Source: a virus
Length of the DNA: 64,000 nucleotides
Strand: one strand, 5' to 3'
Virus record (IMG/VR): IMGVR_UViG_3300042197_004429
Coordinates: 113,313-177,312 of that record
The notes beneath the pieces are model-generated. The model saw only the letters and a program-made list of their open reading frames with translations. It ran no database searches and was not told the DNA's origin. This document shows, piece after piece, positions 20,275 through 46,100 of this stretch. The first letter of the stretch is position 1, and each line of letters opens with the position of its first letter. The translations under genes and the position numbers were made by a program.

Positions 20275-21465
20275 ATGAAATACCCAGTTAGTTTGTCACG
20301 CACAATTTCTAAGCGCATTCGACCAGAAAAGATTCAAGCCCAAGTGGATTTTTTGATCCAAAGAGCCATGAACGGCAGTCGTGGTAGGTGTTGGACTTTT
20401 GAGTGCGAAAATGTTAACGGCCCAGAGTCCACTCCCGCTGGTTGGAGATATTCTTGTGATGTGATTTTTGAAAAAACCAGCGGTAAAGGAATTGGTGGAG
20501 AAATCGAATTTAAGCAGTGGCAAGACATTAAAGCCATGTTGGCCCAAACAGGTAAAAATTCAAAATTCCAAGATAGCCCTTGGACGATCACCGACAACAA
20601 CGAAACAGATGCAGAACCAGACGTTGAAGAAAACAATGGTTCGGTTGAAGGTGTGAGTACTGTTGCTGCCTGTGTTTCGGACAAAGTTTTAGATTGGCAA
20701 GATCTGAAATTTCCCGAAGAGTTGCTGGAAGGAGACGAAGCACTGGCTGGTCATCCGGCTTTTTGTGACTTGTATGATCTTGGTCCTCAAATCAGAACTG
20801 TGCTTTCTGCTATCAAGCGTGCGGTTGATACAAATGGTGCCAGCAGATACCACTCTGTTTTGTATGGTGAGCCTGGGTGTGGAAAGACTAGCACTCTTCG
20901 TGCCGTGGAAAAACTTTTTGGTCCCGGCTCGGTGTTGCATTTGGATGCAACAACTACAACCAAGGCTGGCATTGAAAAATTGTTTTTTAATGAGTTGAAG
21001 CAATACCCGAGACTTGTTTTTCTTGAAGAGGCAGAAAAGGCGCCTGAAGATGGTCTTAAAATTTGGTTGGGTGCTTTGGATGATCGTGGAGAACTTCGCA
21101 AGGTAAACTTTCGTCAAACACAGGTGCGTGAAATACAAATATTGTTTTTCTGCACCGCCAACAACAAGCGTGCTTTTGACAATATGATGGGAACCGGTAG
21201 CGGCGAACCCGGCGCATTGTCTAGTCGCTGTGTAAATGAAATTCAATTTCCCCGACCTGCCGAAAGTACGCTTCGAAAGATTTTAGAAAAAGAAATTGAT
21301 CTTAAAGGTGGAAATAAAAAGTGGGTAACTCCTTGTTTGGATATTGCTCGTGAATTGAAAGTTGCAGATCCAAGAAAAGTTAAAGCGTTCCTTACTGGTG
21401 GCGATAGACTTTTAGATGGATCTTTTCAAGAAGATCAAAGGTCGATTCGCAAAGTCAATGGTTGA
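20275..21465 (+). CDS. AAA+ ATPase (RuvB-like core) with unknown N-terminal domain
   Basis: LYGEPGCGKT, VFLEEAEK (Walker B with EE), FCTANN and ALSSRC arginine finger. Confidence 0.75.
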   Translation: MKYPVSLSRTISKRIRPEKIQAQVDFLIQRAMNGSRGRCWTFECENVNGPESTPAGWRYSCDVIFEKTSGKGIGGEIEFKQWQDIKAMLAQTGKNSKFQDSPWTITDNNETDAEPDVEENNGSVEGVSTVAACVSDKVLDWQDLKFPEELLEGDEALAGHPAFCDLYDLGPQIRTVLSAIKRAVDTNGASRYHSVLYGEPGCGKTSTLRAVEKLFGPGSVLHLDATTTTKAGIEKLFFNELKQYPRLVFLEEAEKAPEDGLKIWLGALDDRGELRKVNFRQTQVREIQILFFCTANNKRAFDNMMGTGSGEPGALSSRCVNEIQFPRPAESTLRKILEKEIDLKGGNKKWVTPCLDIARELKVADPRKVKAFLTGGDRLLDGSFQEDQRSIRKVNG

Positions 21466-21961
21466 TATTAAAAAAATAATTTATTTGAAAAAAAATCTTG
21501 ATCTAAAAGATTTGGACTCAAATAATATTGTTTTTATTCCAAATTTTTTGAGCGATAGTGGAATATTTGTTCCTACGTTTCAATCAGAAGAAGCAAAAAA
21601 ACATTATTTAGATTGGTATAAAAAAGGTTTTTGGAAACAAGATAATGTTTGGTTTTGCAAAAATTTTGTTCTTGGTCAAACTCAATTTTTAAAATGTAAT
21701 CATAATGGATTTGATTTTTTTGTTGCTAACATGCTTTGCAAGAAAGGATTGGGCGGAGTTAGATCTCTTAGGTATAATTCTTTTTCTCGCTGCATGGATT
21801 TGTTGGTTTCTTTTTGTGTTAAAAATAATTTCAATTTGTTAAAAGTAGAAGTTAAAATTAATAGTGGTAGTTTTGAACAAGAAGTTAATTGGCAGTTTAT
21901 CGAAAATCTATTGTTTGATTGTTTAATTGAAAAAGGTTTACAAGTAAAAGTTTATTTTTGA
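21458..21961 (+). CDS. Degenerate macrodomain-like protein
   Basis: LGQTQF..FVANML..LRYNSF..C..KINSG..NWQFIENLL..VKVY follows the layout of phage macro (ADP-ribose-binding) proteins, but the Gly-rich loops are altered. Confidence 0.4.
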   Translation: MVDIKKIIYLKKNLDLKDLDSNNIVFIPNFLSDSGIFVPTFQSEEAKKHYLDWYKKGFWKQDNVWFCKNFVLGQTQFLKCNHNGFDFFVANMLCKKGLGGVRSLRYNSFSRCMDLLVSFCVKNNFNLLKVEVKINSGSFEQEVNWQFIENLLFDCLIEKGLQVKVYF

Positions 21962-21968
21962 GGACAAA

Positions 21969-23126
21969 ATGGAATACTATCAATGGCAAACGATGATTGA
22001 TGAACATCGTCGGATTCATCGGCAAGATAGAAAAAGAGTTCGCAATCTAACGGATGCTCAAATTAAAAATATTGAGATGGAGAACATTCTATCTACTCCA
22101 TTCAACAAAGAGTCAAATCGCTGGCGGAGAATGATTCGCTTGATGGGGGAAAATGTTTGGATCAATGCTGGTAAGCCTTACTACAACATTCACCCACAAA
22201 TGGTTAGATCTCTTTGCAACACTAACTTGGATAAGATACCAGCAAACTTAATAGAAGTTCCAGCGGGCTTAGAAGCGGTGGTTTTCAGATTTGCTGAGAA
22301 CGTCCCTGATCGTTTTATAACAAACAATGGATTTCATGTGGTTTCAGCAGAAGAGGTTCGTCATTCGCCAATTTATTGTAGATCAGTTTTGTTTGGTAAA
22401 ATAAAGAATGATAGATCAAAACACGTTGCTGAAAACATAAAGAAAACTACTACAGAGTTTCTTCGATCAATTAATATGCCATCCCTAAATGATAATGTAA
22501 AAGCCATTATAGACTTGGCTTCCGATGGATATTATAAAGACGTTGATGATTTCATGATAATGTGTGTTGATGAAGGCTTTAGAGTTAAAGATCGTGGTGT
22601 TGATAGAAGTTTGTGTAACTTAATTTGCATAAATTGTAAACATGGTCAGAGTGTTTCAGAGGCAATACAATCTACTGTGGAGCAAGCCTCTGCTGGTGAA
22701 CAGGCTGTTATGGTCACTATGGGTGATCGTTTGTCGAACTTGATTCGTGTGATTGTTTCTGCTGGTTTTTTGGCGAACTGTCCTGAAGATGATTTGGTTG
22801 TTCCCGATATTTTGAGTGCTGATAAACAAAGTTTCAAAGATGCCTCGCAACGTGGAGATGCGGCGGCAATTCAAACTATTGTTGAGCGTGCAAAAAGACG
22901 AGGTAAAAATGGTTACAATATTGGAACATCAGAGATGTTCGTATCAGAGAATGAATCTGAACAGCACAAACAATACGACAGCAGCGGAAAACAATTAAGT
23001 TTTAGTCACTTACGTGGTGGTCATCCTCATGCTGTTCGTTATGGTGAAGGAAAAAACAAGGTAAAAATCAAATGGTTTAGACCAACTAGAGTCAGGCCAG
23101 ATTTGCCTTTTAAAACATCCGAATAG
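21969..23126 (+). CDS. Hypothetical protein
   Basis: 385-aa ORF with a C-terminal HLRGGHPH..RYGEG..KIKWFRP motif. Confidence 0.65.
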   Translation: MEYYQWQTMIDEHRRIHRQDRKRVRNLTDAQIKNIEMENILSTPFNKESNRWRRMIRLMGENVWINAGKPYYNIHPQMVRSLCNTNLDKIPANLIEVPAGLEAVVFRFAENVPDRFITNNGFHVVSAEEVRHSPIYCRSVLFGKIKNDRSKHVAENIKKTTTEFLRSINMPSLNDNVKAIIDLASDGYYKDVDDFMIMCVDEGFRVKDRGVDRSLCNLICINCKHGQSVSEAIQSTVEQASAGEQAVMVTMGDRLSNLIRVIVSAGFLANCPEDDLVVPDILSADKQSFKDASQRGDAAAIQTIVERAKRRGKNGYNIGTSEMFVSENESEQHKQYDSSGKQLSFSHLRGGHPHAVRYGEGKNKVKIKWFRPTRVRPDLPFKTSE

Positions 23127-23131
23127 TTGCT

Positions 23132-23557
23132 ATGGAAAAAAATCTTTTACCAAAAGAAGAACTAAATCGTTATAAGCAATTTGCTTTTAAAGACGATATG
23201 TTCAAATTGGCTATAGGTTTCATTCTAGGTAACTCTTTTAATAATGTTGTTGGTGGAATCAGCAGTTTTCTGATCATGCCGGTAGTTAATTTTTTAACCA
23301 TTCAAACAGGAGAAAATTGGAGAACAATTGTTTTTTCTCCTGTCAGTGGTTTAAATTTTGAATTAGGAAAACTTTTAGGAACCTTTGTAGATTTTTTATT
23401 AACATCTATTGTTCTTTATGTCATTTATGTAAAAATTTTGGGATCTATAAAAAAACAAGATGAAGGTTGTGATTTAAAACAATGCAATCGGTGTTTGAGT
23501 CTGATACACATAAATGCCACAAGGTGCAAATTTTGTACTAGCCCAATTAAAAAATAA
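23132..23557 (+). CDS. mscL: Large-conductance mechanosensitive channel MscL-like protein with C-terminal zinc ribbon
   Basis: YKQFAFKDDMFKLAIGFILGNSFNNVV..LIMP, G..LG.FVDFL, then CNRCLS.I...ATRCKFCTS. Confidence 0.82.
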   Translation: MEKNLLPKEELNRYKQFAFKDDMFKLAIGFILGNSFNNVVGGISSFLIMPVVNFLTIQTGENWRTIVFSPVSGLNFELGKLLGTFVDFLLTSIVLYVIYVKILGSIKKQDEGCDLKQCNRCLSLIHINATRCKFCTSPIKK

Positions 23558-23641
23558 CGCCCGGCATAACCGAGTCCGAGCGGCTGATTTTCCATTTCAA
23601 AAACAATTTATCGAGGACTTCGGTTAATGCCGTTGTTCTCT
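23552..23641 (+). mobile_element. Integron attC-like recombination site
   Basis: Begins with ..TAAC overlapping the mscL stop and ends with GTT.. at 23635. Inner imperfect palindrome GGCATAACCGAGTCC / GGACTTCGGTTAATGCC has two unpaired extra bases. Confidence 0.65.
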
Positions 23642-23659
23642 GACTCGTGAGGGAAAGCC

Positions 23660-23854
23660 ATGTGTGATGACAGCGTAATTGACGATGATGGAGATCGGCA
23701 AGAGTGGGATTCCGGTCCGTTCTGCCGTCACTGGAGTGATCCGTCAGACTGCGAGGAACTGTGCAAGTGCGGGCACAAGTGCTGTAAGCACGCTTATGGC
23801 GAGGATTGCACTGTAGATGACTGCAAATGCGACGGATTTGAGGACGCAGAGTAG
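23660..23854 (+). CDS. Cys-rich small protein in an integron-type gene cassette
   Basis: GC-richer than its flanks. Bracketed by the perfect 12-bp inverted repeat GTTCTCTGACTC (23635) / GAGTCAGAGAAC (23854). Confidence 0.6.
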   Translation: MCDDSVIDDDGDRQEWDSGPFCRHWSDPSDCEELCKCGHKCCKHAYGEDCTVDDCKCDGFEDAE

Positions 23855-23865
23855 AGTCAGAGAAC

Positions 23866-24879
23866 ATGAGAAAATTAGCATCAATACAAACTATTAAATT
23901 TGTTAGACCCATACCAAACGCAGATGCAATTGAGTGTGTCGGTGTTCTTGGTTGGGAATGCGTGTGTAAAAAAGGTGAATTTCAAAATGATGATAAATGT
24001 GTTTATTTTGAAATTGATAGTTTGTTGCCAGAGATGGAAGTATTTGAATTTTTAAGAAAAAGTTGCTATAGAAAAGATCTGAATAAATTCAGGCTAAAAA
24101 GTATTAAGTTGCGTCAGCAATTAAGCCAAGGTCTTGCTTTACCTTTGAGTTTATTTCCTGAGTTATACCATCTAGAAGTCGGCACAGACGTAACTGATTT
24201 GCTGAATGTTGAAAAGTACGAGCCACCAATCCCTGCTCAAATTCAAGGTGATGCCAAAAAGTTTGTTTGGCCTATTGCAAAAACAGATGAGGTTAGAGTT
24301 CAAACTGACGAGGGGCTTGCTTTAATTTCTAATCTTGTTGGCCATCCTTATTATGTTAGTCTTAAATTAGATGGAACAAGTTGTTCTTTTGTTATTGATC
24401 CATCCGACAATGAATTTCATGTTTGTGGAAGAAACTATAGTTACAAGCACAAGCCAAATCATAGTTTTTGGATTATAAACGAACGATACCAACTAGAAGA
24501 ACGCTTGAGATCAATCGGTGGCAACTTGGCACTTCAAGGAGAGTGTGTGGGTCCAGGAATTCAACAAAATAAACTTGGATTACCCATTATTGATTATTAC
24601 GTTTTTAACGTGGTTGACACATCAAATCGAAAAAGATTATCGCTTGAAGATTCTTTAAATGTTACAAAAGAACTTAAATTAAATTTTGTTCCAATACTGG
24701 AAAAGGGCGATTCATTTAATTACAACATGGAACAGTTGCTTGAAAAAGCAAAAGGAAAGTATCGTGAACATTTTGAGAATGCGAAGCAGCATCAAGAACG
24801 TGAAGGAATAGTGATTCGAAGTTTGTGTGGATCAGTTAGTTTCAAAGCCATAAATAACGAATTTCTCCTACAGGAATAA
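23866..24879 (+). CDS. RNA ligase, Rnl2/DRB0094-like
   Basis: MRKLASIQ..IPNADAIE N-terminus, KLDGTS, QGECVGPGIQ.N, REGIV and FKAINNEFLL. Confidence 0.88.
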   Translation: MRKLASIQTIKFVRPIPNADAIECVGVLGWECVCKKGEFQNDDKCVYFEIDSLLPEMEVFEFLRKSCYRKDLNKFRLKSIKLRQQLSQGLALPLSLFPELYHLEVGTDVTDLLNVEKYEPPIPAQIQGDAKKFVWPIAKTDEVRVQTDEGLALISNLVGHPYYVSLKLDGTSCSFVIDPSDNEFHVCGRNYSYKHKPNHSFWIINERYQLEERLRSIGGNLALQGECVGPGIQQNKLGLPIIDYYVFNVVDTSNRKRLSLEDSLNVTKELKLNFVPILEKGDSFNYNMEQLLEKAKGKYREHFENAKQHQEREGIVIRSLCGSVSFKAINNEFLLQE

Positions 24880-32387: not shown

Positions 32388-35262
32388 TGGTGTTTACATT
32401 TTAATTCAAAATAGCAAACCAGTTTTTTGGAAACAAAAAGGACCAGACGGCAACGAAGTGACTGGTTTAGTAATTGCTCTAAATCACAAAGATGCCAAAC
32501 TTTGGAGTGATTGGTTTTACGGGAGATTTAAAACAAAAATTAGCCCTTATCTCGTAGGATCACAACACGAATCTGATAATTTAAATTTGGCCGTGTGGAA
32601 TGCTCATGACTTGGGTTCTCAGTTTGATGTTGTTTTTGTTTTTGTTTTAGATTTTAAATCTGGAAAGCCTAAGTTTTGGTTTGTTCCTCCGGAGCAACTT
32701 CAAGATATTTTGCAAAACAATTAAATTAGAGATTGAAAACAAACACATGAACACAAAGCCTAAATTTGTTTTAATTTGTGAACACGATAATGCTAAAGTT
32801 AGATACTTTGGTCCATATGAATCCACAAATGATGCCGAAGTGGTTGCTAATCATTTTTCTTACGAAAACACTCCATACCACTTATGCATAGTTGAACTAA
32901 GTTTGCCAACACAACAGACGATTGTTGACATTAAAAAACAAGATAACAATATTTAAATTTAACAAAGGAGAAACAACATGGGAATGTTTTCTTGGTGCTG
33001 CAAGGGTTGCGGTCACGAAATTAAGACAGATGAGTTTGTTCGAATGAATGGTTGCGTCGGAGTTTATGATGGTTACGGAAGAGTTCCAGGCTCAGGTTTT
33101 GACGGATCGTTGTGTTCAAAAGACCCATCATGTTGGCACGAAGTTTGTTATCAAAAAGCAACAGTAGAACAAAAACTTGATGAAGCCCCTAGCGACCAAG
33201 CTACCAACCAAGGCTTTGGATACTCTGCTCTTGAATTCATGGAAGGATATGATCCTAGAGTAGAAACAACATTTGAGGCAGTTATTTTTGTAGATCATTA
33301 TGATCAAGAAACAAAAAATATTTCCAAGTGGGAATATTACATCAACAAGATTGATGACAACTTTGTCTTACGTGATGTTTGCGATTATCGTAATAAACGT
33401 GATGAATTTGATAGCGATGTATTAGATGCTATTCCCGAGTTTTGTTTACACAACAAGACCGGAGAAGAAATGTACCTTATCAGCCAGCAGCGGATTGATT
33501 TCATTGAAAAGTCAGTTGGCCCCAATCCCAAAAAACTGTCGGTGGTTTTTGATGGACTTGAAAAAGCAAAGTTGATTGTTGATAATTGTTTGGAACAATT
33601 ACCACACCCAGAATATGGATTTCATTTGATTATTTTGGGAAAACAAGGTAAAATATGCGGTCAATGTTACGAAAGAAATCGCACCCCTGAATTTAAAAAA
33701 GTTTTCCATCAGGACGGGGATGATTTTGATTTTGTAAACACGGGCAAATTCACAGATGAAGTTGTGTATGTTCAAGGCATCAAGCGTGCAAGACATTAAT
33801 CAACCTAAAGAATTAAGAAAAATGTTAGATGTTGCTCCAATTGAAGATTGGGCAAACACAGATATCCTTGGCGTAGTAGGTTCTGCTTTTGAAAACGTGA
33901 ATGGAAAAACAACAAACCAGACAAGAAGTTGTGATTTGTTTGGTTGTGGTGGCACAAGAATAATGGTCACTTGGCCCGATGGAAGTGTTACTTGGCCTTG
34001 TTGTAATGGAATTGTTGTCGAAAAAAATCATTTGCGAATAATTTAACTATATTTTTGTCAAAAATTACTCTTTTATTTTTGACAAAAATAGCAGGTTTTT
34101 ATGCGAATTACATATCGAACACTATCTCAATTAATTGATAAACTATCTGAGGAACAAAAAGATAAAGAAGTCACTGTAGACGTTTGGGATGGAGTGACTT
34201 TAGAAACTTATGGTGCTGAATTTAGAATAGTTAATGAAAAACATGAGTCACTCGATTCCGACCACCCAGTTATTTGTGTGAACCAAGTTGATGATTTAGG
34301 AAAAGTAGTAAATGACGTTGATTGGATTTCTAAATCAATAGGAATCATAAAGGACTAAATATGAACATTAGCGATTTAGATATTGAAAATTTATATTATC
34401 ATTTAGCACATAATTTTAATTATCGTTGTGATCATAAGTTGGTTCAAGAGTTTGATTGGATTGTTTCCAATCTGGAACCTCATGGCACGCCAATTTATTT
34501 TGATACGTTACTAAATAAAGTACAATTGACTCAGGGCGTTGACAATTTAGATTTTGAAAAACCTTCAAAAAAACATTTAATTGCTGGTTTGAAAAAATTG
34601 TTAAAGCATGATCTTGTTGAAATTAATGGTGAAATTAAACACATACAACACGTTCCAAAAAAATTACCCAAAAGAACTGCTCAAAAAATTAATGAGATTA
34701 GTTTAATTGCCAAAAAAACAAAAAGAGTAAAGAAAATAAAAAATGCTAAAAGAGGTGGGGAGAAAAGTGCATGATTGATTTAGAAAAAAATTGTTATTCG
34801 TTACACCCTCAATTCAACCCTGCCCACAGATCGGTTAAGATCTACAACTGGATAGTGAATCAAATCAAAGAAGAATCACACCCGGTTTGTTTTGATGTTA
34901 TATTTTCAAAAATTCAACATGATTTTGAAAATAGCATTAATAAAGAAGAGCCTCCATCAAAGGAACAAACCGTGGAGGGTATTAAAAATTTGCTATCCGA
35001 GAATTTGATAATTGTTGATACCAACTAGGGTCCGAAACAGGAAACCTTCATGTCTTTTACTTGGGGCGAAGTGAGCAAGTGGTCTAAAAACCACGGTTAC
35101 AAAATTAGTCGTAAAGAAGAAAAGTTTTATGCGACCAATACGGACACAAGCGAAATTCAAGAATGTTGTTCGTTGGAAGAGTTAGTTAAGTTTGTGTTTA
35201 ACCAAATATCCAAAAATCAGTGGGTTGAGCATCAAAAAAACTATGAGAAGCAAAAAAAGTAG
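32374..35262 (+). other. Run of small co-oriented hypothetical genes: 32374-32724, 32747-32956, 32978-33799, 33756-34046, 34101-34358, 34361-34774, 34771-35028, 35050-35262
   Basis: Contiguous + strand ORFs with short gaps and purine-rich RBS. 34361 and 34771 are tandem paralogs, and 32978 starts with a CCxGC motif. Confidence 0.65.
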
Positions 35263-43142: not shown

Positions 43143-46100
43143 ATGAATGATTCAATTCAAAGATTGGTGGATTACGCAGTTGAAAAAAACTTGAGCGTAA
43201 AAAAAATCCGTGAGCGATGCCATAATGCCCTCAACCCTGTGCGAAGTTTTTGCAAAGACATTGAACAACTCAGGTCTGGAAGACCCCCAACAGACATTCC
43301 GTTGCTTGAATTAATATCTTATTCTAATTTGGGAGACGCTGTTTCTTTTGTTGAATTTGATAGTGATGCTGAGTCGGATGCTGGTGTTTTTCGATTTGTT
43401 TCTATTTTTGATCAAAATGATGTTAAAATCCGTCTTGAAAGATACGATGTTGAAGACCAAAAATTCCATCCAGATAACAAATACATTGCACCATCTGATG
43501 CTGTTGTGATGGTTATGGATTGGGCTTTGGCAAATAACGTGGTGTTGCCATAATGAACAATAAAGTTAGAAACCCACAACAATTGATGGTGTTGATGAGA
43601 CAATATTGTGAAAAAAATGATATTATTTCTTTTGTTGATCAATTGAGTTTTGAAGAAATAACTTTATGCACTATGGTTTCTGAGTTGTTGTTGAGCGATC
43701 CTTATCTTTCTCATTTGGAAAGAACTGAACGAGAGTGTCAATTTGATTTTTTCAACAATTTGAGAAAAAGCAGACTGGAAGCAAATTAGATTTTTTAAGG
43801 ATTGTTTATGAGCGACCGTATAACCCGTGACGAAGTTGAATATGTTGAAATGCTGTGTGTTCAAACAAACACACCAGTTCCGCAAGATTTAAAAAGTTAT
43901 ACCGTAAAACAGTTGTTTGATTTCATGAATGAACTGAGAAAACGAACAGCAAACGACAATCGAACCAATGTGGCACTTGATAATCGCTTGCCGAATGCTG
44001 CTAACATTAATTTTGATGGTGCTGGTGAATAATGAGAACTGTGGCAAAAACGCCCTCTGGTTGGTACGAACGCAATTGTGCGAAGTTAACCGAGAATGAG
44101 CAATACCAACTAATGCACGGCACAGAGGAAGAGTGTGCAGAGGTTTGGAGTCGATTCAAAAACGATTCGATCACCAAATTGTGCGAAACGGCTGAATTGG
44201 ATAATATTTTTGAAAATTTCAACCTAAAAGGTGAATTGGTGATTGCCAATTTGATGTTGCACAGCAAACGTGCCACAGTTACAATGAAACACAACGGTAA
44301 CTTCTACAGAACTGAACACACATGGTAAAGTTAAATGAACAAGACGTTACTGATTTGCTAGAGGTTGTAAAAGAACAAGATGCCGTTATTTTAGCATTAT
44401 TGGAATCGTCAAATGAACAAACACGACCAATGGTGGAAGAACTACAAGACATTAACAAAGTGATTGTAGAACTTCTTACACAACCCGTTCACAAGATTGA
44501 GAGGATGTTTTGATGAAACACAAATTTGACTGCGACGTTGATGGCGGCATTTTGGTGATGAGTGCATTACGATATGCGTTAAATAGACACACCTATGTGC
44601 CTGCTAGTGTTCAAGATTGGATACGCAAATATTGGAATGACCTCGACAGAAATACTAAAGCCCACGTTGTGTGGGATACTTTTGAACACCTATACACTGT
44701 GCGAGTTGTTTTTAATCAAACCGAACATCAGTGTGATTACGATAGTTGGAAGCGATTTGGTATCGAAATGTATCATCAACTAGATTACGACAACAGGAAG
44801 TGGGTCGATGACAAATGCCGTGATGATTGGTACAAAGACAACATCGACGTTTGGCAAAAGCAGACGGTTTAGAAATCACCAGACTGAAACGCTGATGCGA
44901 TACCTACTAGCGTGCAAGCGGTCACTCGCTGTGTTTAAATCAGAACGGATTGCTGAAATAGAGTTAGAACTTAAACACGAACTAGAAACAAGACACAATG
45001 CGGCTGTTTGCGATATTCAAGAATGACGAGTTTCTTGGAACCGTGAAGAACTTCAATGGTTCTAGTCTTAAGCGTTGGGCTAGCGAATTTTATAAAGTTA
45101 ATTTGAGTGATGTGCTTGTGTACGAGTTAGTGGAAGTAAAGGACTAATTATGAATTGTGAGAAAGAGTTAAATCTGACTGATCTAAAGCACGAAGATCAA
45201 CACTTAACTAGAACTTTCCGTGCTTGGTTGGATAAAGTTCGTGCAGGTGTTGAGGAAGAGTTAGACGAACACAACAAAATTGTTGTGCGTTGGCACGAAT
45301 GTAACTTTATGGGTCTTTGCAGTATTGATTTTTGCTACGGCAGCGTTGATGCAAAACACAGCGATTTGATTCGTACAATTTTGAATCGTTGGGACAATAT
45401 TGTTGGTGATGCAATACGATACAGTGATAATTTAGCACTTCGTTTAGGTGTTGATAAAACTTTGGTGTGGCGTAGTTTTTTCGACGATGAAACAAACGAT
45501 GAGTGACGAATGGTTAATTGAAAATGGTATCGAACCAGCAGACGTTACCGACAATCTGCGGAATTTATTAAGTTTGTGTGACGATACCAAATACGCTGAT
45601 ATGCTTCGTGTTTTAATAATTATGGAGGAAGAGTGGACACACAAGAATTGATTCGACAAGCCTATGCTTTAGGTTTTGAACGTGGTCGATTTGAAGCGGT
45701 TTGCGAGTATTGTAACACAGAAGGTTTGGGCGAAGAGTTTTTGAGTCTTGTTGGTAAAACTATTGAAAAAGACCACTGTGATTTTGAGATATTGAGTGGT
45801 TGTAAGTTAGGTGAACAATAATGAACACTGTAATTTATGTTGTCAAAATCTTAAATAATCGCACTGAGAGTTTTGATATTATTGGCGGTGTGTTTGATTG
45901 TTTGGAAAAAGTAAATCAGTTTATTGAAAGCAATAATCTTGATAGAGTTTCTGAAGTTAATAAAGTTATTTTAAACCATCATCATGTAGTGACAGTTGGA
46001 AATGCTGAATCTTGATTCTGCTGTTGTTCGTGGATTAAGCGAGTTGCGAAATCGTGACTTTCAAATAATTGAAGTTTCAGAGCAAGAGTTTATTCAATCT

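Follow-up and report, generated by a model that had tools for sequence, protein, structure and literature searches.

Integron attC sites share little sequence and are recognized by structure, the R-box consensus RYYYAAC/GTTRRRY of the literature being a tendency. The folded bottom strand has its AAC triplet in one arm and its extrahelical bases in the opposite one; of these bases the first, usually G, occupies position 16 and the last, a conserved T, position 23/24, a stem of 6 bp separating the two; the spacers measure about 5–6 nt, total length ranges from 57 to 141 bp, and cleavage falls in the AAC triplet (PMC5027507). Insertion by attC × attG recombination, with a GWT consensus and cleavage after the G in double-stranded DNA, has been shown experimentally for bacterial chromosomes (bioRxiv 10.1101/2022.09.11.507474), and phages carry attC sites and clusters that are recombined by IntI1 (PMC9892861). 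Both the attC sites of phages and the solitary cassettes that GWT sites receive by insertion are, then, already described. Here we report on a locus in 64,000 nt of viral DNA (the window), which closes a 177-kb virus contig of IMG/VR (IMGVR_UViG_3300042197_004429; estimated to be 74% complete, with a GC content of about 36%). Judging from its sequence, an integron integrase has very probably loaded a complete cassette, consisting of an attC and a 64-aa open reading frame (ORF), into this phage genome by attC × attG recombination, a reading that presumes the action of IntI and a circular donor cassette. In the literature searched we found no account of a phage that has naturally received a single cassette and for which the empty site is preserved.

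Among described systems, the SALINs (single attC sites lacking integron-integrases) of Loot et al. (bioRxiv 10.1101/2022.09.11.507474) have in common with the locus a single ORF with a single attC and neither integrase nor attI in the vicinity, a target that carries nothing more than a G↓WT word, which is G↓TT at this locus (the arrow marks the crossover), an intergenic position beside resident transcription, and bounds of the form G↓TT...G↓TT. The locus differs in that its target is a large phage genome and theirs a bacterial chromosome, that it would represent a natural event with the empty site kept in relatives whereas theirs are assay products, and that the hotspot motif CRGM at positions 6–9 is absent (TTTT in the window). 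The phage CALINs (attC clusters without an integron-integrase; Qi et al., 2023, PMC9892861) are likewise attCs in phages, including virulent ones, and mostly have no integrase. Those, however, are clusters of at least two attCs found with IntegronFinder, for which the route of entry was left open and illegitimate recombination suggested, whereas the window holds a single cassette, for which entry by way of an integrase is indicated by the insertion junctions and the empty site.

The MscL-like gene of the window ends at 23557 and the RNA-ligase ATG stands at 23866, directly after an inverted repeat, as an earlier reading of the letters alone (the sequence-only reading) had said; 308 nt separate the two genes. 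GC content per 100 nt in this gap is 45–57%, as against about 30–40% in the surroundings, and the insert as delimited below has 51.8% GC (0.518) between flanks of 0.342 and 0.345; it is foreign in its GC content. Homologues of the ligase, 96, 95 and 87% identical, are found on seven syntenic contigs (L191–L197), which have a common gene order with the window: AAA protein (396 aa), 385-aa protein, MscL (141 aa), ligase, phosphoesterase, exonuclease and NYN. The proposal to look for an empty site in related phages proved fruitful: on all seven contigs the MscL stop is directly followed by the ligase ATG (TAA-C/T-ATG; alignment A2), the empty site reading AAAAAATAA(T/C)ATGAGAAA, that is, AAAAAATAATATG in L191–L194 and AAAAAATAACATG in L195 and L196. 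Relative to these seven contigs the 307-bp segment at 23559–23865 is a clean insertion, around which the flanking sequence is intact.

On the plus strand the insert is bounded AAC↓...AAC↓, left flank and insert both ending in AAC, and the minus strand across it reads CATG↓TTCTCT...GGGCG↓TTATTTT. Comparison with the empty sites places both junctions inside AAC, which is G↓TT on one strand and AA↓C on the attC bottom strand. Since a C is retained before the ligase ATG, as in L195 and L196, the ancestral site is likely to have read TAAC; in those two relatives TAACATG provides a GWT attG word, GTT, on the minus strand (CATG↓TTATTTT), and the retained C implies the same ancestor for the window. 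Boundaries at AAC together with a TAAC ancestor are as expected if the AAC triplet is cleaved and the attG consensus is GWT.

The attC-like imperfect palindrome of about 90 bp and the GC-richer, Cys-rich ORF recorded in the sequence-only reading are both present (the ORF, of 64 aa at 23660–23854, has 54–57% GC per 100 nt), as is the perfect inverted repeat said to flank the ORF, which measures 13 bp rather than 12. An inverted repeat of 12–13 bp is not significant on its own; by our own estimate about 0.3–1 are expected by chance within 300 nt per 64 kb. Its interpretation as complementarity of R' and R'', the sign of a cassette, is borne out, the complementarity being 12 bp in the window and 8–12 bp in the true cassettes of three arrays (L005, L136 and L144). 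Counting on the plus strand from the 3' end of GTTCTCT (23641), we find an extrahelical A at position 16 and a T at position 23 with exactly six pairs between them, and the AAC on the other arm. The triplets are AAC at 23556–58 and 23863–65 (the latter closing the circular form) and GTT at 23635–37, all on the plus strand, and the 90 nt of the site fall in the 57–141 range. Because the extrahelical bases lie opposite AAC on the plus strand, that strand is assigned as the attC bottom strand by the rule of PMC5027507, and the hairpin would therefore be the cassette's own complete attC.

This polarity bears on a claim that did not hold, namely that the second attC had been truncated and that the hairpin was the attC of a previous cassette. 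The hairpin is read here as the cassette's own complete attC and the right arm of the repeat, GAGTCAGAGAAC, as the cassette end that the crossover left behind; nothing is truncated in the window, and there is no second attC. The R boxes proposed earlier, GCATAAC/GTTAATG, are actually L-box stem. On the bottom strand the cassette unit runs from the C after AA↓ through attC and body to the next ...AA↓ (23558/9 to 23864/5), both ends of the insert lying at AA↓C, which makes it exactly one repeat unit. A random fragment would not be expected to end so, which tells against a reading that we consider very unlikely, in which a piece of an array, composed of the 3' part of the previous cassette's attC and the ORF cassette with its own attC cut off after R'', arrived by illegitimate or homologous recombination. 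The attCs of one chromosomal integron are alike, so that of an upstream neighbour would indeed match, and in L002, the contig with the closest homologue of the ORF, the ORF precedes GAGTCAGAGAAC and a hairpin of the same family, which could put the ORF's attC downstream. Yet the extrahelical bases opposite AAC on the plus strand mark the attC as the cassette's own, the same strand call being right for 11/11 class 1 attCs, and the same layout is seen in the real arrays L136 and L144, where, on the strand of the ORF, the attC comes upstream of it.

The site that would form on circularization has a perfect 12-bp R box (GAGTCAGAGAAC/GTTCTCTGACTC; 12/12 bp) and folds at −25.1 kcal/mol (z −6.3), none of 300 shuffles being as stable. 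Joining 23854–65, which pairs with 23635–46, to 23559 gives the circle junction GAGTCAGAGAAC-GCCCG-GCATAACC. The homology with L002 (81% amino acid identity; 225 nt at 83%), a phage contig that carries genes for portal and capsid, stops exactly at ...GAGAAC, where L002 continues GAGTCAGAGAAC-GACCAA-GCATAACC, colinear with the circle junction of the window. A hairpin of the same family comes next, with G and T as its extrahelical bases and without an R'' box. Global alignment was tried as a means of comparing hairpin orientation between the window and L002 and was set aside as undecidable, the near-palindrome aligning both ways.

The window is thus circularly permuted with respect to L002, and a circular or tandem intermediate is needed, which is difficult to reconcile with the transfer, by microhomology-mediated recombination, of an ordinary phage 'moron' with a terminator-like hairpin from an L002-like phage, the likeness to an attC being coincidental. 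Such a transfer would accord with the ORF family, whose members are mostly native, tightly packed phage genes at local GC, with the viral nature of the nearest homologue, and with the present-state hairpin, which is not unusually stable (z −1.6 to −1.9). It would leave boundaries at AA↓C and an exact attC geometry, seen in 0/60 shuffled genomes, to be accounted for, and the plus strand has no T-run terminator; we hold this explanation to be very improbable.

The structural rules of PMC5027507 were coded as a geometry scan, superseding a first heuristic (consensus plus minimum free energy) that was too permissive, with 66 matches in 223 kb. As a control, the scan found 11 class 1 attCs in plasmid arrays, with the strand correct in 11/11 and nothing else in 3 × 10 kb, and it recovers seven attCs in environmental arrays (six in L005, L132 and L144, and one in L136). 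The window site is found with 0 mismatches and with plus as the bottom strand. Sixty dinucleotide shuffles of the 177-kb genome yielded 0 sites with a stem of at least 13 bp and a mean of 0.17 at the loosest setting; the composite attC geometry is far beyond chance. One other place in the window, an AT-rich intergenic hairpin at 34041–34101 (TTTTTGTCAAAAAT.../...ATTTTTGACAAAAA) with R boxes ATTTAAC/GTTTTTA, passes only this loosest setting and, given the 0.17 expected per shuffled genome, is probably a plain terminator-like hairpin.

Two covariance models, R1 (11 attCs, from class 1, L144 and L136) and R2 (5 attCs, from L005 and L132), are biased to their training sequences. With filters off, R1 aligns over its full length to exactly 23552–23641 on the minus strand, in the register derived by hand, with 10.9 bits, and the crossover that it predicts is the indel junction set independently by the empty sites. 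It also finds attCs on which it was not trained, at L136 352–419 and 644–700, with 27.4 bits for the one upstream of the ORF homologue, and in a class 1 array (L200:5261–5320; 54.3 bits); the matches outside the training set confirm L136 as a true cassette array. A further R1 match in the window, at 45195–45266, was rejected as it is not a hairpin. Known attCs are missed or barely scored by the models: that of estX receives 14.4 bits from R1 with filters off and is missed by R2, and those of L005 and L132 are mostly missed by R1. Both models are too narrow to decide on the window site. Rfam gave no relevant match over the region at E up to 10.

A number of observations weigh against the insertion of a cassette by an integrase. 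The R1 score is not significant (in 8 kb E is 0.2; for the window as a whole it is 1.6, with rank 3), and R2 gives no match in the window. The R box, AGAGAAC/GTTCTCT, agrees with RYYYAAC/GTTRRRY only in R, AAC, GTT and Y, 1/4 of the degenerate positions being matched per side; this is the main departure at the level of sequence, and we do not take it as defining. The first extrahelical base is A and not the usual G, and the unpaired spacer has 4/3 nt (GCCC vs GTT) and not 5–6, 2 bp of the usual spacer being paired. Bottom and top strands fold equally well (−13.6 vs −13.2 kcal/mol), and the present-state hairpin alone is weak, as its z scores above indicate. The closest relatives (95–96%) have TAAT (ATT on the minus strand) and not TAAC; the GTT target is therefore deduced from the 87% relatives and the right junction. 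No tyrosine recombinase was found in the window, in keeping with the earlier reading, or in the whole 177-kb contig, and no second copy of this type of attC was found in 185,579 species genomes or IMG/VR.

Measured against the canonical class 1 attCs of aadA1/aadA7 and estX, the site has the same AAC/GTT triplets, complementary R box, bases at 16 and 23 with T at 23, 6-bp stem and variable loop, and a length inside 57–141 nt. It is set apart by an R box that departs from RYYY/RRRY, the A as first base, the 4/3-nt spacer and an ORF on the bottom strand. The bona fide estX attC (L199:1056–1126) has the same short-spacer geometry and, like the window site, a first extrahelical base other than G.

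Insertion by an integrase could have proceeded as follows. The phage DNA would have supplied a G↓TT site, whose bottom strand would have been swapped with the folded bottom strand of the circular cassette, and replication would have resolved the product. The target G↓TT would lie on the minus strand (5'-CATG↓TTATTTT-3'), exactly between the MscL stop and the ligase start, and the outcome would be a solitary, complete cassette with its ORF in the same direction as the flanking genes. The features concerned are collected in Table 1.

Table 1. Features of the MscL–ligase junction in the window; cassette and attC terms follow the interpretation favoured in the text, and the arrow marks the crossover.
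Feature	Position	Strand	Description
MscL-like gene	23132–23557	+	Pfam MscL 9e-16; 141 aa; relatives L191–L197 carry the same gene directly 5' of the ligase
MscL stop TAA plus C	23555–57 + C23558	+	Left half of target site
Inserted cassette	23559–23865	+	307 bp; boundary ambiguous inside repeated AAC; absent from 7/7 related contigs
RNA ligase gene	23866–24879	+	Pfam RNA_ligase and PHA02142 OB domain; ATG abuts insert and is the right half of target site
Phage target		+	AAAAAATAAC↓ATGAGAAA; between MscL stop and ligase start
Complete attC	23552–23641	−	90 nt; top strand is −, recombinogenic bottom strand is +
attC arms			GGCATAACC.../...GGTTAATGCC
R' box AAATAAC	23552–58	+ (bottom)	Hybrid of phage AA and cassette C
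Unpaired spacer GCCC	23559–62	+ (bottom)	
attC stem, 5' part	23563–77	+ (bottom)	
Variable loop	23578–23614	+ (bottom)	37 nt
attC stem, 3' part	23615–31	+	Extrahelical T 23619/20 (position 23) and A 23626/27 (position 16)
Spacer GTT	23632–34	+ (bottom)	
R'' box GTTCTCT	23635–41	+ (bottom)	
Extended R'' box GTTCTCTGACTC	23635–46	+ (bottom)	Left arm of inverted repeat; 12-bp perfect complement of 23854–65
GAGTCAGAGAAC	23854–65	+	Cassette-borne part of original R' box (bottom strand), ending at AA↓C crossover
Imperfect hairpin	23563–77 and 23615–31		5' arm GGCATAACCGAGTCC; 3' arm GGAC[T]TCGGTTA[A]TGCC; both extra bases on 3' arm
Perfect inverted repeat	23634–46 and 23854–66		13 bp; TGTTCTCTGACTC / GAGTCAGAGAACA
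Circle junction			GAGTCAGAGAAC-GCCCGGCATAACC
Cassette ORF	23660–23854	+	64 aa, acidic, Cys/His-rich; motif GPFCRHW..C..LC.CGH.C..H..C.C; on attC bottom strand

Elements of the IS200/IS605 type carry at each end a subterminal imperfect hairpin. The hairpin of the insert is also subterminal, 4 nt from the left end; the extreme ends have no terminal inverted repeats, and no target duplication extends beyond AAC. The segment might on these grounds be regarded as a non-autonomous element guided by a hairpin and moved as a single strand (an IS200/IS605-type palindrome-associated transposable element, PATE, or a relative) that inserts 3' of TAAC and ends in GAAC, and it may be added that the 87%-identity relatives L195–L197 have, about 1 kb upstream of MscL, a gene of TnpB-like type (Cas12f1-like_TNB). 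There is, however, a single hairpin and none near the right end, no other copy is found in the 177-kb genome, extrahelical bases at 16/23 and R'/R'' complementarity over 12 bp characterize attC and not IS605, and homologous ORFs stand in canonical attC arrays. We regard such an element as highly improbable. The TnpB-like gene of these three relatives encodes 541 aa (11–1636), and one of them, L195, is a contig of 458,813 bp.

For a cassette inserted by an integrase, the next question is that of the donor. The core of the site had been likened to the attC repeats of Rhodopirellula and other Planctomycetota, a resemblance for which we obtained no support: a two-arm scan of the 185,579 species genomes gave 6 matches, where our own estimate is about 8 by chance, and 0 were from planctomycetes. 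In IMG/VR the pattern GAGTCAGAGAAC..GCATAAC had one chance match, within a coding region, and a looser attC pattern had 101 matches, none with a stem extension of more than 2 bp. Blastn of the locus against phage GenBank records gave no match, and a scan of IMG/VR with a ligase peptide gave no relatives. That the phage had captured host cassette DNA stands as far as the acquisition of cassette DNA goes, given the empty site in relatives and the ORF homologues in arrays, and the clue to the host that was seen in it reduces to an active integron integrase. The host cell presumably contained such an enzyme, which would have come from the host itself or from a co-resident element. In genomes of Lachnospiraceae and Clostridia (L021:1959–2018 and L023:152–211) we observed a tight 60-nt hairpin, GCATAACCGATAGAGAGGTT...AACCTCTCTATCGGTTAATGC, with the same outer arms and extra A as the attC stem; it is without flanking AAC/GTT boxes, has no Rfam match and is possibly due to chance.

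The cassette ORF has a GAGG ribosome-binding site 9–12 nt 5' of it and runs in the direction of the phage genes; between it and its neighbours the plus strand showed neither a promoter-like nor a terminator-like site. It is probably co-transcribed with the flanking genes and presumably expressed. Relative to its attC it is inverted with respect to the usual cassette layout. Homologues comprise 5 close ones, 13 viral loci (IMG/VR contigs) and 63 metagenome loci. The family, of about 55–75 aa with acidic ends, has the motif GPFCRHW..C..C.CGH.C..H..C.C; the window ORF keeps 12/12 of the residues that are invariant in an alignment of 47 sequences (A3), and the invariant Cys/His pattern suggests a small zinc-binding protein. 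No match to the ORF was obtained in Pfam, PHROG or PDB; its AlphaFold model (predicted local distance difference test, pLDDT, 62) is too poor for a fold search, and Atlas matches were below 0.9 and to unnamed viral clusters only. In most of these loci, as mentioned, the gene is closely packed among those of a phage-like contig and has the GC content of its surroundings.

Homologues of the ORF also occur in four multi-cassette arrays. L005 and L132 have theirs on the attC top strand, L144 and L136 on the bottom strand as in the window, and the strand calls of the covariance model agree with the orientation of the arrays. The arrays thus have in common with the window the same small Cys/His family, an R'/R'' complementarity of 8–12 bp and, for L136 and L144, the ORF on the bottom strand. 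They differ from it in having several cassettes, in R boxes that fit the consensus (GCCTAAC/GTTAGGC and similar) and in attCs of unrelated sequence, and their homologues are only 52–58% identical to the window protein. A tree of the 47 ORFs is poorly resolved, with 4/44 inner branches well supported, so the idea of several recruitments into cassettes is weakly supported.

It is tempting to speculate that integrons and phages swap the same small genes in both directions, a phage-type zinc-protein family having repeatedly become cassettes of either orientation, in no fewer than four unrelated arrays, and one such cassette having been written back into a jumbo phage by an integron integrase that acted, in the course of infection, on replicating phage DNA; we consider this possible but doubtful. 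Two further arrangements of the family may be mentioned here. One metagenome contig carries tandem paralogues (L164:884–1054 and a next ORF from about 1076, the second reading ...YFCRHYNDCEECQELCRCGHLCCEHS...), and in L004 (1982–3035) the 3' end of a tyrosine integrase gene (Phage_integrase in Pfam) overlaps the start of a homologue by 8 nt, which could be a recombination link or mere adjacency.

If attC × attG recombination did load the cassette, the locus would offer base-pair evidence that integrase-mediated recombination acts on phage genomes, and the host of this large AT-rich phage would have held an active integron integrase. The locus also defines a substrate for testing, with a 100-nt attC and a target of 18–20 bp. 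The cassette gene belongs to a family otherwise common in phages, which bears on the origin of cassette genes. Should the trade run both ways, integron integrases would be a direct route of gene gain even for phages that do not integrate, and cassette pools would also hold phage genes (possibly anti-defence genes) beside the defence genes already reported.

The neighbouring gene junctions vary as well. The 385-aa protein upstream of MscL (window 21969–23126) is listed as PF26125 (AcrVA2-like) in the precomputed Pfam list of the relatives, while the window copy had no Pfam match at E up to 0.01. Between the genes for this protein and the 396-aa AAA protein, the window carries an insertion of about 450 bp relative to L191 and L193, at 21482–21931 within an ORF of 181 aa (21416–21961); it is AT-rich like the phage, without an attC-like hairpin, and its ORF has no Pfam match. 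Between the 385-aa gene and MscL, where the window and L193 have 5 nt only, L191 (2083–2618) and, at the same place, L192 carry a different insert, about 530 bp long, in which there is an ORF of 67 aa. This region of gene junctions is a hotspot for small insertions.

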